Virus record (IMG/VR): IMGVR_UViG_3300031576_000021
Coordinates: 1 to 64,000 of that record
Reading direction: 5' to 3' (one strand)
Source: a virus
DNA: 64,000 nt
The notes under the pieces were generated by a model. That model ran no database searches. It had not been told where the DNA came from and saw only the letters and a program-made list of their open reading frames with translations. This document shows, piece by piece, positions 62,356 to 63,184 of the stretch. Positions within the stretch are counted from its first letter, which is position 1. Every line of letters begins with the position of its first letter. The position numbers were made by a program, and so were the translations under genes.

Positions 62356-62904
62356 ATGACGCTGTTCAACGGCACTTTGCGCGCCTTCTCTCTCGCCATT
62401 CTCTCCGCGGTGATGCTCGCCCTCGGTATTGCGCTCCTCCAATGGGCACTTGACGTGGGGCCGTGGCGCGAATTGATGCCGCACTACGTGTGCTGGCAAG
62501 AGCGCACCGGGCTGATTTGGACGACCGCTGTGGCGGATTGCGCGATCTGGGTCGCGTACTGGAGCTTTCCGCTACAGATCGCTTGGCTCACGCGGTTCGG
62601 CCACCTGCCCTTTCCGGGGCTCATGTGGATGATCGGCACCTTCGTGATGGCGTGCGGGGCCACTCATGCGATGGATCTGTGGACGATCTGGACGCCGACC
62701 TATTATGCCGCGGCCGTCGTCAAGATGCTCACCGCGATCGTCTCGCTGACGTGCGTCGGTGTCACGGCGGTCGGCATCGGCTCTCTCGGGCGGCAGCGGC
62801 CGGAGACCGCGGCGCGGCTGCGCCGACTCGCAGAACGTGTTCGAGAGGTGGATCCCGATGCGGCGGCGATCCTAGACCAGTTGGCGCGGAGCTTCCATGC
62901 CTGA
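62356..62904 (+). CDS. Stand-alone ethylene-receptor (ETR1)-like transmembrane sensor domain
   Basis: MPHYVCW...ADCAIWVAYWSFPLQI...FVMACGATHAMDLWT...VKMLTAIVS; GAGGT RBS. Confidence 0.8.
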   Translation: MTLFNGTLRAFSLAILSAVMLALGIALLQWALDVGPWRELMPHYVCWQERTGLIWTTAVADCAIWVAYWSFPLQIAWLTRFGHLPFPGLMWMIGTFVMACGATHAMDLWTIWTPTYYAAAVVKMLTAIVSLTCVGVTAVGIGSLGRQRPETAARLRRLAERVREVDPDAAAILDQLARSFHA

Positions 62905-63184
62905 CGTGACGGCACAGGATGGCGTCGTGAACGCGCTGCACACGCTCGCGCAGCAGGTCGCCATTATGAACGAACGGCAGATAGCGTCGCAACGGACGCT
63001 CGACATGATCGTGCAGGTTGTGCAGGGGGCGCCCAACATTCCAGGGAGTGGGTTGACGGAACGGCTTGCTCGCGTCGAATCAAGCCAGGGCTACCATTGG
63101 TCGTTCGCTGGTGCGTTCATGACAGCGGTATTCACGCTTGCAGGTGTTCTGGGCGCTTCCCTGCTTGCGGGGCTGGCGCGCTGA
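62897..63184 (+). CDS. Coiled-coil protein with C-terminal TM
   Basis: Overlaps the upstream stop; GLTERLARVE followed by a hydrophobic tail. Confidence 0.6.
   Translation: MPDVTAQDGVVNALHTLAQQVAIMNERQIASQRTLDMIVQVVQGAPNIPGSGLTERLARVESSQGYHWSFAGAFMTAVFTLAGVLGASLLAGLAR

Follow-up and report, generated by a model that had tools for sequence, protein, structure and literature searches.

The window analysed here comprises 64,000 nucleotides, bases 1–64000 of the IMG/VR record IMGVR_UViG_3300031576_000021, and encodes a stand-alone ethylene-binding-domain (EBD, ETR1_N) protein of 182 amino acids (aa) on the + strand at 62356–62904. We regard this protein as very probably a true EBD that is kept by selection, has no signalling output and retains an intact metal site. 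Its gene lies between the genes of a putative small exported protein and of a helical membrane protein. In the reading that we prefer, while giving it somewhat less than an even chance, the three products would form an accessory lysis or envelope module with a metal- or ligand-binding switch, and not a hormone relay. The domain is known as the input part of receptors in plants and bacteria; a phage form that lacks an output, keeps the metal site intact and is tied to small membrane proteins would put it to a new use.

The whole record is 88,217 bp long with 66% G+C and is bounded by direct terminal repeats of 124 bp; CheckV puts its completeness at 100%, and it is a complete phage genome. Phage genes in the window encode a tape-measure protein (5892–12089), a UvsX-like recombinase, two helicases, a ParB-methyltransferase and an exonuclease. 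Past the window end follow genes for a terminase that appears to carry an intein, for a portal protein and for the head. A first-pass annotation, made from the letters of the window, had called the EBD gene phage-encoded, and the terminal repeats together with the structural and replication genes bear this out. A sequencing-run lookup found the stretch in one run only, a cave metagenome, and in no RNA run; this cave metagenome run is probably the source of the DNA.

The ethylene-binding domain protein and its metal site

The EBD protein consists of an extra N-terminal transmembrane (TM) helix, a three-helix core and a short tail. Its features, including those predicted with AlphaFold2 (AF2), are:

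62356–62904, + strand: stand-alone EBD (ETR1_N) protein, ATG start, 182 aa, four predicted TM helices and a short tail
62383–62451, + strand: TM0, the extra N-terminal TM helix, about residues 10–32, from hydropathy and AF2; absent from most bacterial homologues
62512–62763, + strand: ETR1_N core, residues 53–136, three TM helices, PF25487
62536–62538 (D61), 62653–62655 (C100), 62665–62667 (H104) and 62722–62724 (K123), + strand: site residues of the core, which also include Y68 and P72
62794–62901, + strand: charged helical C-terminal tail, residues 147–182, AF2 helices, rich in Arg, Glu and Asp

The protein matched Pfam PF25487 (ETR1_N) with an E value of 1.4e-22 and 80.2 bits (curated cut-off 27). 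The match spans residues 53–136, which correspond to profile positions 2–86 of 97, and a whole-genome profile search placed it at 62512–62763 with 82 bits. No Pfam family besides PF25487 was found at E ≤0.1, and GAF, HisKA, HATPase and GGDEF were all absent at that threshold. No output domain, such as GAF/PAS with HisKA/HATPase or GGDEF, is fused to the EBD; the protein stops 36 residues past helix 3. The characteristic motifs are DCAIWVAYWSFP at residues 61–72, FVMACGATH at 96–104 and KMLTAIVS at 123–130. The G+C content of the gene by codon position is 0.62/0.52/0.81, like that of the neighbouring genes.

The hydropathy of TM0 peaks at residues 10–28 with a value of 2.51. The AF2 model, built on an 81-row alignment with a mean pLDDT of 87.4, has helices at residues 3–33, 51–80, 87–112, 116–146, 148–163 and 167–181. 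Both the model (pLDDT 86–97 per block) and hydropathy predict three consecutive TM helices in the core, and the model folds the tail into a helical hairpin made of the last two helices (148–163 and 167–181). The named motifs, the extra N-terminal TM helix, the helical tail and the lack of GAF and kinase domains, all noticed in the first-pass annotation, were recovered by the open reading frame (ORF), Pfam, hydropathy and AF2 analyses. Its identification of a stand-alone EBD likewise stands, on the PF25487 score and on copper-site residues that are invariant in the alignments. No solved EBD structure was found in the PDB, where the sequence search gave one chance match (E 1.6) and Foldseek of the model gave 0 matches at E ≤0.001. 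The best BFVD match of the model was a 289-aa protein (E 0.02, probability 1.00), which is as long as gp065 of Maribacter phage Molly, described below.

Conservation was judged in two alignments, one of 20 sequences and one of 81, the latter with 78 bacterial rows. The columns invariant in these alignments include C46, D61, Y68, F96, C100, H104, Y116 and T126; K123 varies little or not at all in either, and P72 is likewise invariant in the 81-sequence alignment. The fully conserved columns of the 78 bacterial rows are all kept (10/10) in the window protein and in P0002, a close relative described below, and 8/10 are kept in the EBD of a second phage record, IMGVR_UViG_3300050506_000206. For columns conserved at ≥85% in the same rows, the counts are 24/38, 23/38 and 27/38, respectively.

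By alignment position, D61 equals Asp25 of the ethylene receptor ETR1, C100 equals Cys65, H104 equals His69 and K123 equals Lys91. Passages of PMC10266040 state that Cys65 and His69 hold Cu(I) in ETR1 and that Lys91 passes the signal to helix 3; the same source and parts of PMC11819568 describe Asp25 as critical for copper and ethylene binding and Lys91 as bridging to Asp25 and transmitting the signal. In the window protein, C100 and H104 of FVMACGATH are the Cys and the His one helical turn apart in helix 2 that would serve as Cu(I) ligands, and D61 and K123 are the polar pair of an Asp in helix 1 and a Lys in helix 3. Wang et al. in 2006 reportedly identified seven ETR1 residues for ethylene binding, namely D25, Y32, I35, P36, I62, C65 and H69. 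Against this list, five residues are identical (D61, Y68, P72, C100 and H104) and two are conservatively changed (Ile35 to F71 and Ile62 to V97); P0002 has Ile at position 71. The sequence comparisons support a Cu(I)/ethylene site of Asp, Cys, His and Lys that is intact in the phage protein. Being small, the protein may also be a practical minimal EBD for biochemical and structural studies.

A site of this kind could also serve plain copper handling, in which the protein would buffer or sequester membrane Cu(I) during infection, serving as a sink or donating the metal to another protein. This explanation draws on the conserved Cu(I) ligands and on the in vitro Cu(I) binding of the ETR1 membrane domain described in part of PMC10266040. 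However, one site per monomer gives little capacity, Pfam and NCBIfam scans matched no copper protein in the module or its neighbourhood, and the lysis-type contexts of EBD genes in other phages would be left unexplained. We consider copper handling very unlikely as the role of the protein.

Relatives, selection and origin of the gene

An exhaustive HMMER search over 1.84 billion representative proteins resulted in 5886 EBD relatives at E ≤0.001 and 2069 at E ≤1e-10, and the query alone reached 1e-30. The best other matches were about 40% identical and mostly of kinase length, and the nearest longer relatives carry HisKA and HATPase domains. A word-indexed search gave a sole close relative, P0002, a 179-aa protein on a 21.9-kb Logan contig that is 55–56% identical to the window protein and has the same architecture of N-terminal TM helix, core and equally long tail. 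The identical residues number 18/33 in TM0 (residues 1–33), 12/19 in the periplasmic loop (34–52), 57/94 in the EBD core (53–146) and 8/36 in the tail (147–182). TM0, loop and core thus share 55–63% identity with P0002, and the tail is the least conserved part. Since 18 of the 33 N-terminal residues are identical, TM0 is translated and conserved. The regional identity pattern, the intact frame and the genome-typical G+C by codon position argue for purifying selection on the window gene and not for a one-off dead fragment. The first-pass annotation had allowed for a one-off truncation of a host kinase gene; this is not so, as P0002 is a second protein with the same truncated architecture.

A decaying, functionless remnant of a captured host kinase gene would be in line with the tail, which resembles the start of a kinase linker helix and implies that the gene arose by truncation, and with the fact that one close relative is known. 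Yet the frame is intact, the G+C at third codon positions (GC3) is a typical 0.81, a Shine-Dalgarno-like motif precedes the start and the gene is coupled to its neighbours. All invariant site residues were also kept through about 45% divergence from P0002, at the same length and architecture. A remnant is therefore highly unlikely.

Pattern scans of IMG/VR, metagenome contigs and species genomes returned no close relative, and broader IMG/VR pattern scans returned one other contig and the record of the cultured Maribacter phage Molly only; these scans are insensitive, so that rarity is not shown by them. In tblastn searches of INPHARED (50,697 records), the window EBD, the IMGVR_UViG_3300050506_000206 EBD and a further query, P0076, gave no match. 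A bacterial EBD fragment matched eight Maribacter phage Molly/Colly records in the same collection, and the Molly EBD as query found the same eight only. The scan of species genomes was stopped at 600 pattern matches, with at least 589 relatives confirmed and the best 80 kept. These 80 belong to Verrucomicrobiota (the best match, 47% identical over the domain), Acidobacteriota, Cyanobacteriota, Sphingomonadales and others.

The tree was built from 83 rows, that is, segments from 79 of these 80 loci (one had no segment under the motif filter) and four added rows. It covers 124 columns and has very long branches, and the placement of the phage rows in it is unreliable. The window protein and P0002 form a pair with an SH-aLRT of 92 on a stem of 2.49 changes per site. 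The branches of the IMGVR_UViG_3300050506_000206 EBD and the Molly EBD measure 4.86 and 10, respectively, against a median terminal branch of 0.15. On these branch lengths, the phage EBDs clearly evolve much faster than the bacterial receptor domains, and long branches would be expected after a change of function. The tree gave no host signal for the pair of window protein and P0002.

The bacterial relatives also bear on a dominant-negative decoy, in which the output-less EBD would form mixed dimers with a host EBD kinase and silence or lock its signalling during infection. Ethylene receptors are described as homodimers in part of PMC10266040. EBD kinases are common in soil bacteria, to judge from the at least 589 species-genome relatives and the 5886 matches at E ≤0.001, and the periplasmic C46, invariant in bacterial homologues, is kept. 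A matched dimer interface would nevertheless be poorly served by a protein whose nearest bacterial EBD, among the best 80 kept, is 47% identical, and which stands on a long stem and retains 24/38 of the strongly conserved bacterial positions. Moreover, a decoy needs neither TM0 nor two coupled genes. We rate the decoy as improbable.

The start of the tail aligns with the kinase linker that follows the EBD in the bacterial proteins ("...LALPSP..." and a coiled coil), and HMMER alignments with kinases reach query residues 160–180, so the window gene looks like a kinase gene cut inside the signalling helix. In a profile search for short EBD proteins, limited to 69–485 residues, 723 proteins were found at E ≤1e-5, and 29 of the 120 listed carry PF25487 only. 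Fourteen of these 29 were inspected; all run into the kinase linker and coiled coil, most of them on very short contigs. This agrees with the earlier statement that bacterial homologues are normally fused to outputs, and the "stand-alone" bacterial EBDs in the databases look like truncated kinase calls (14/14). Unlike these short bacterial matches, the window protein, P0002 and the IMGVR_UViG_3300050506_000206 protein end in short C-termini of their own. The best explanation of these comparisons is that the EBD gene was captured from a bacterial sensor kinase, cut within the linker helix, provided with TM0 and kept by selection.

The three-gene module and its possible link to lysis

The genes next to the EBD gene and those of the main lysis cassette of the genome are:

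62183–62353, + strand: putative small protein, exported or anchored in the membrane; 56 aa when read from the first ATG, with a TTG 13 codons farther in as a possible alternative start
62897–63184, + strand: 95-aa partner, ATG start, helical/coiled-coil N-terminal part and a single C-terminal TM helix at residues 73–93 (hydropathy)
21123–21338, + strand: 71-aa protein, the sole paralogue of the 56-aa protein and first in the canonical lysis cassette; GC3 0.86
21335–24626, + strand: remaining lysis cassette, downstream of tail-fibre genes
21335–21739, + strand: four-TM protein, 134 aa; GC3 0.83
21648–22058 and 21980–22381, + strand: two proteins with TM and coiled-coil segments
22539–22979, + strand: DUF1353 protein (PF07087, 6.6e-16)
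22986–24626, + strand: Peptidase_M15_4 endolysin split by a LAGLIDADG intein, peptidase residues 490–541; the only recognisable endolysin

The 56-aa ORF ends 2 nt before the EBD gene and has a GC3 of 0.79, and the start of the 95-aa ORF overlaps the EBD stop by 8 nt (ATGCCTGA). Shine-Dalgarno-like motifs, GAGG and GGAG, lie 5 nt upstream of the ATGs of the EBD gene and the 95-aa gene, respectively, and both small ORFs are called as genes in a public protein collection. The overlap and the C-terminal TM helix confirm the link to a coiled-coil/TM gene at 62897–63184 that had been noted earlier. The first-pass annotation had further proposed a two-gene membrane module among the possible functions; a membrane module with the neighbour fits the context, but the 56-aa ORF at 62183–62353 had been overlooked and the genes number three. 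The 56-aa protein has a hydrophobic N-terminus followed by a Cys in a lipobox that is not canonical, and it gave no match in INPHARED, PHROGs, Pfam or NCBIfam. No family in Pfam, PHROGs, NCBIfam or PADLOC was found for the 95-aa partner. The PADLOC scan of the module returned no defence family, and the promoter/terminator scan at the module returned nothing above expectation.

The 56-aa protein ties the module to the main lysis cassette. BLASTP aligned it with the 21123–21338 paralogue at 49% over 39 aa (E 4e-12), and tblastn within the genome gave E 2.4e-10 for the paralogue and no third copy. Over 38 aligned codons, the pair differs at codon positions 1/2/3 in 14/9/22 cases, and nine identical residues are encoded by different codons, which places the similarity at the level of the protein. 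The stop of the paralogue overlaps (ATGA) the start of the 134-aa four-TM protein. The order of small exported protein, multi-TM protein and single-TM helical protein accordingly occurs twice in the genome, once with the EBD. The four-TM protein of the cassette was considered as an EBD relative and ruled out (hhalign probability 3%).

EBD genes of other phages have a similar setting. In IMGVR_UViG_3300050506_000206, a 131-aa EBD-only ORF (PF25487, E 2e-21) follows a fibre-like gene. Four nucleotides past it begin the genes of two single-TM proteins, behind which a 154-aa protein is encoded that has matches to phrog_1259 (lysozyme part, 1.6e-18) and TIGR02594 (1.2e-18, 67.7 bits, cut-off 70.55); the layout looks like that of a lysis cassette. 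In Molly, gp065 (289 aa, annotated as a hypothetical protein, PF25487 1.5e-16) lies between gp064, a TM and coiled-coil protein, and the annotated endolysin gp066. The EBD gene thus adjoins a cell-wall hydrolase gene in 2/2 other phages examined, and a single-TM helical protein gene abuts the EBD gene in 3/3 phages examined. The paper describing the Molly/Colly phages does not mention ethylene, and literature searches combining phage with ethylene-binding domain or receptor, which did not extend to supplementary files, found no paper on a phage EBD. As a separate observation, the 21980–22381 cassette protein matched the protein directly downstream of the IMGVR_UViG_3300050506_000206 EBD gene (8341–8700, 119 aa) at 31% over 61 aa; the E value of 0.004 comes from a 7-sequence database without composition correction, and the match may be coiled-coil noise.

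With the paralogue at the head of a lysis cassette and the other phage EBDs beside peptidoglycan hydrolases, the surroundings suggest a part in lysis or in envelope biology rather than in hormone signalling. The build of the proteins leads in the same direction. The EBD protein, with 182 aa, four predicted TM helices and a charged C-terminal tail, would pass a permissive definition of a holin as a small protein with at least one TM helix and such a tail. For the 95-aa partner, the nearest clusters in the ESM Atlas are viral hypothetical proteins (0.95–0.94). Among clusters that have a family, XhlA (PF10779) comes nearest, with a score of 0.92 and 174 shared features, and we take it as a lead only. 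The partner also has the build of XhlA, with about 90 aa, a helical N-terminal part and one C-terminal TM helix; its resemblance to XhlA is one of architecture and model features only. A complex prediction of the EBD protein with the partner gave a score of 0.00 and a mark of 0.32, which weighs neither for nor against binding.

The lysis or envelope reading is favoured because the module layout is duplicated and tied by a paralogous small protein, because two other phages show independent lysis-type contexts, and because a holin-like EBD protein is joined to an XhlA-like partner. The three products would come together in the inner membrane or periplasm and act on the host envelope, most likely as an accessory to lysis, be it a holin, an antiholin or a timing device. 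The multi-TM role would fall to the four-helix EBD protein, whose charged tail would face the cytoplasm, and the 95-aa protein would correspond to XhlA, the companion of the holin XhlB in PBSX. Through the Cu(I) pocket, bound metal, a small ligand or a redox cue would determine the state of the module; the conservation of the Cu site suggests a dependence on bound metal or ligand. As the main lysis cassette lies 41 kb away, the module would be a second, regulatory set and not the primary holin.

Several points weigh against this reading. The EBD gene is not encoded beside the endolysin, as might be asked of a holin gene, but about 38 kb from it, with the main cassette 41 kb away, and that cassette already has a multi-TM holin candidate of its own. 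The immediate neighbours of the EBD gene are secreted Cys-rich proteins or proteins without an assigned function. The link through the paralogous small protein is circumstantial, with its non-canonical lipobox. The 95-aa partner did not match the XhlA profile PF10779 at E up to 1, it has no similarity to the coiled-coil proteins of the lysis cassette or to the partner proteins in IMGVR_UViG_3300050506_000206 and Molly, and the single-TM partners of the three phages share no detectable sequence similarity with each other. The comparison holds only two other phage contexts. A strict ligand site is not obviously needed by a holin and fits a sensor better than a pore.

The ligand site bears most directly on a non-lytic sensor module, in which the EBD, on binding Cu(I) together with ethylene or some other small ligand that is unsaturated or gaseous, would signal within the membrane to the 95-aa partner, to the small exported protein or to both. 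The signal would govern a different decision in infection, for example whether superinfecting phages are excluded, the envelope is remodelled or the secreted proteins encoded nearby are exported. The full ligand site is kept, including K123, whose counterpart Lys91 transmits the signal in ETR1. Translational coupling of the genes, surrounding genes that encode signal-peptide proteins and a location far from the endolysin also speak for a sensor. On the other hand, Pfam, PHROG and NCBIfam revealed no recognisable output or DNA-binding component in the module, the tail, where a signal would exit, is the least conserved part (8/36), and the other two phage EBD genes lie in lysis-type contexts. 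Such a sensor is a credible candidate, though an unlikely one.

Returning to the lysis or envelope reading, a broader version of it would have phages repeatedly taking the copper EBD from sensor kinases and rebuilding it as a ligand- or metal-gated lysis component, with the window trio as a gated antiholin/holin set beside the main cassette; we regard this version as doubtful. If it were true, lysis timing or an envelope decision would be set by a cue read inside the membrane, such as Cu(I) load, an alkene or gas, or redox state. The phage EBD could then represent a novel way in which phages control lysis or functions of the envelope, and a cultured system for the idea exists in Maribacter phage Molly and its host.

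The module lies between the replication genes and the terminase, among genes for proteins without an assigned function and for Cys-rich proteins that bear signal peptides. Proteins with signal-peptide-like starts, Ser/Thr-rich linkers and Cys-rich C-terminal ends are encoded at 59245–61173, at 63462–64289 (running past the window end) and at genome positions 67932–74020. Near the module, secreted-type proteins of 642 aa and 275 aa end in similar Cys patterns; no family was found for them, and they are unusual for a phage. Just upstream of the module, 61355–62062 encodes a 235-aa coiled-coil protein with a start like a DnaJ-type CxxCxGxG zinc finger; its NCBIfam DnaJ matches are weak (E 0.004–0.06), far under the cut-offs. 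A 136-aa ORF with a lipoprotein-like signal (…LSGC…) lies 2.5 kb downstream of the module at genome positions 65664–66074, and no family was found for it. Farther on, the large terminase at genome positions 74740–77724 appears to be intein-bearing, as its translation shows Hint-like block ends. Between the genes for the terminase and the portal protein, genome positions 77821–78405 encode a stand-alone 194-aa protein with an ATPase domain of the histidine-kinase/GyrB/Hsp90 type (PF13589 2.4e-6, PF02518 2.6e-4); it lies 15 kb away from the EBD gene, and a connection between the two was not seen.

Comparison with known systems

The window protein shares with ETR1/ERS1 of Arabidopsis, SynEtr1 of Synechocystis and AzoEtr1 of Azospirillum a three-helix membrane domain with an Asp in helix 1, a Cys-x3-His in helix 2 and a Lys in helix 3. 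An extra N-terminal TM helix is also described for plant subfamily-2 ethylene receptors in part of PMC3611092. Unlike the ethylene receptors, the window protein has no GAF, PAS, kinase or receiver domain and ends 36 residues after helix 3. It further differs from them in being encoded by a phage, coupled to two small membrane or exported proteins and fast-evolving.

According to PMC5589764, XhlA of the Bacillus prophage PBSX works in concert with the holin XhlB and the endolysin XlyA and is required along with them. The window module resembles this system in placing the gene of a small, tail-anchored helical protein beside that of a multi-TM protein, and in the Atlas score of 0.92. It differs in its reversed gene order, in having no adjacent endolysin and no profile match to PF10779, and in a multi-TM partner that is an EBD and not an XhlB-type holin; in addition, the host here is probably diderm. 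Class I holins such as lambda S105 are small multi-TM inner-membrane proteins with charged cytoplasmic C-termini, and lysis-timing regulators can be encoded far from the endolysin, as are RI and RIII of T4. Lambda S105 and T4 RI/RIII are not known to have a sequence or profile relation to the window protein, and none of them is known to have a conserved metal or ligand site.

Among phages, Molly gp065 and the 131-aa EBD protein of IMGVR_UViG_3300050506_000206 are like the window protein in having PF25487, no signalling output and a single-TM helical neighbour. Their genes lie directly beside a hydrolase gene, whereas the window EBD gene does not, and in the tree the two proteins stand apart from the window protein. 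The Molly EBD has Asn in place of the Asp and an extra 160-aa C-terminal domain, and the IMGVR_UViG_3300050506_000206 EBD has Arg in place of the Lys and no TM0. The window case is distinctive in that its module stands apart from the main lysis cassette, yet is tied to it by a paralogous gene. The domain itself is known; what is new is the variant carried by phages, which has no output, evolves fast and is coupled to small membrane proteins.

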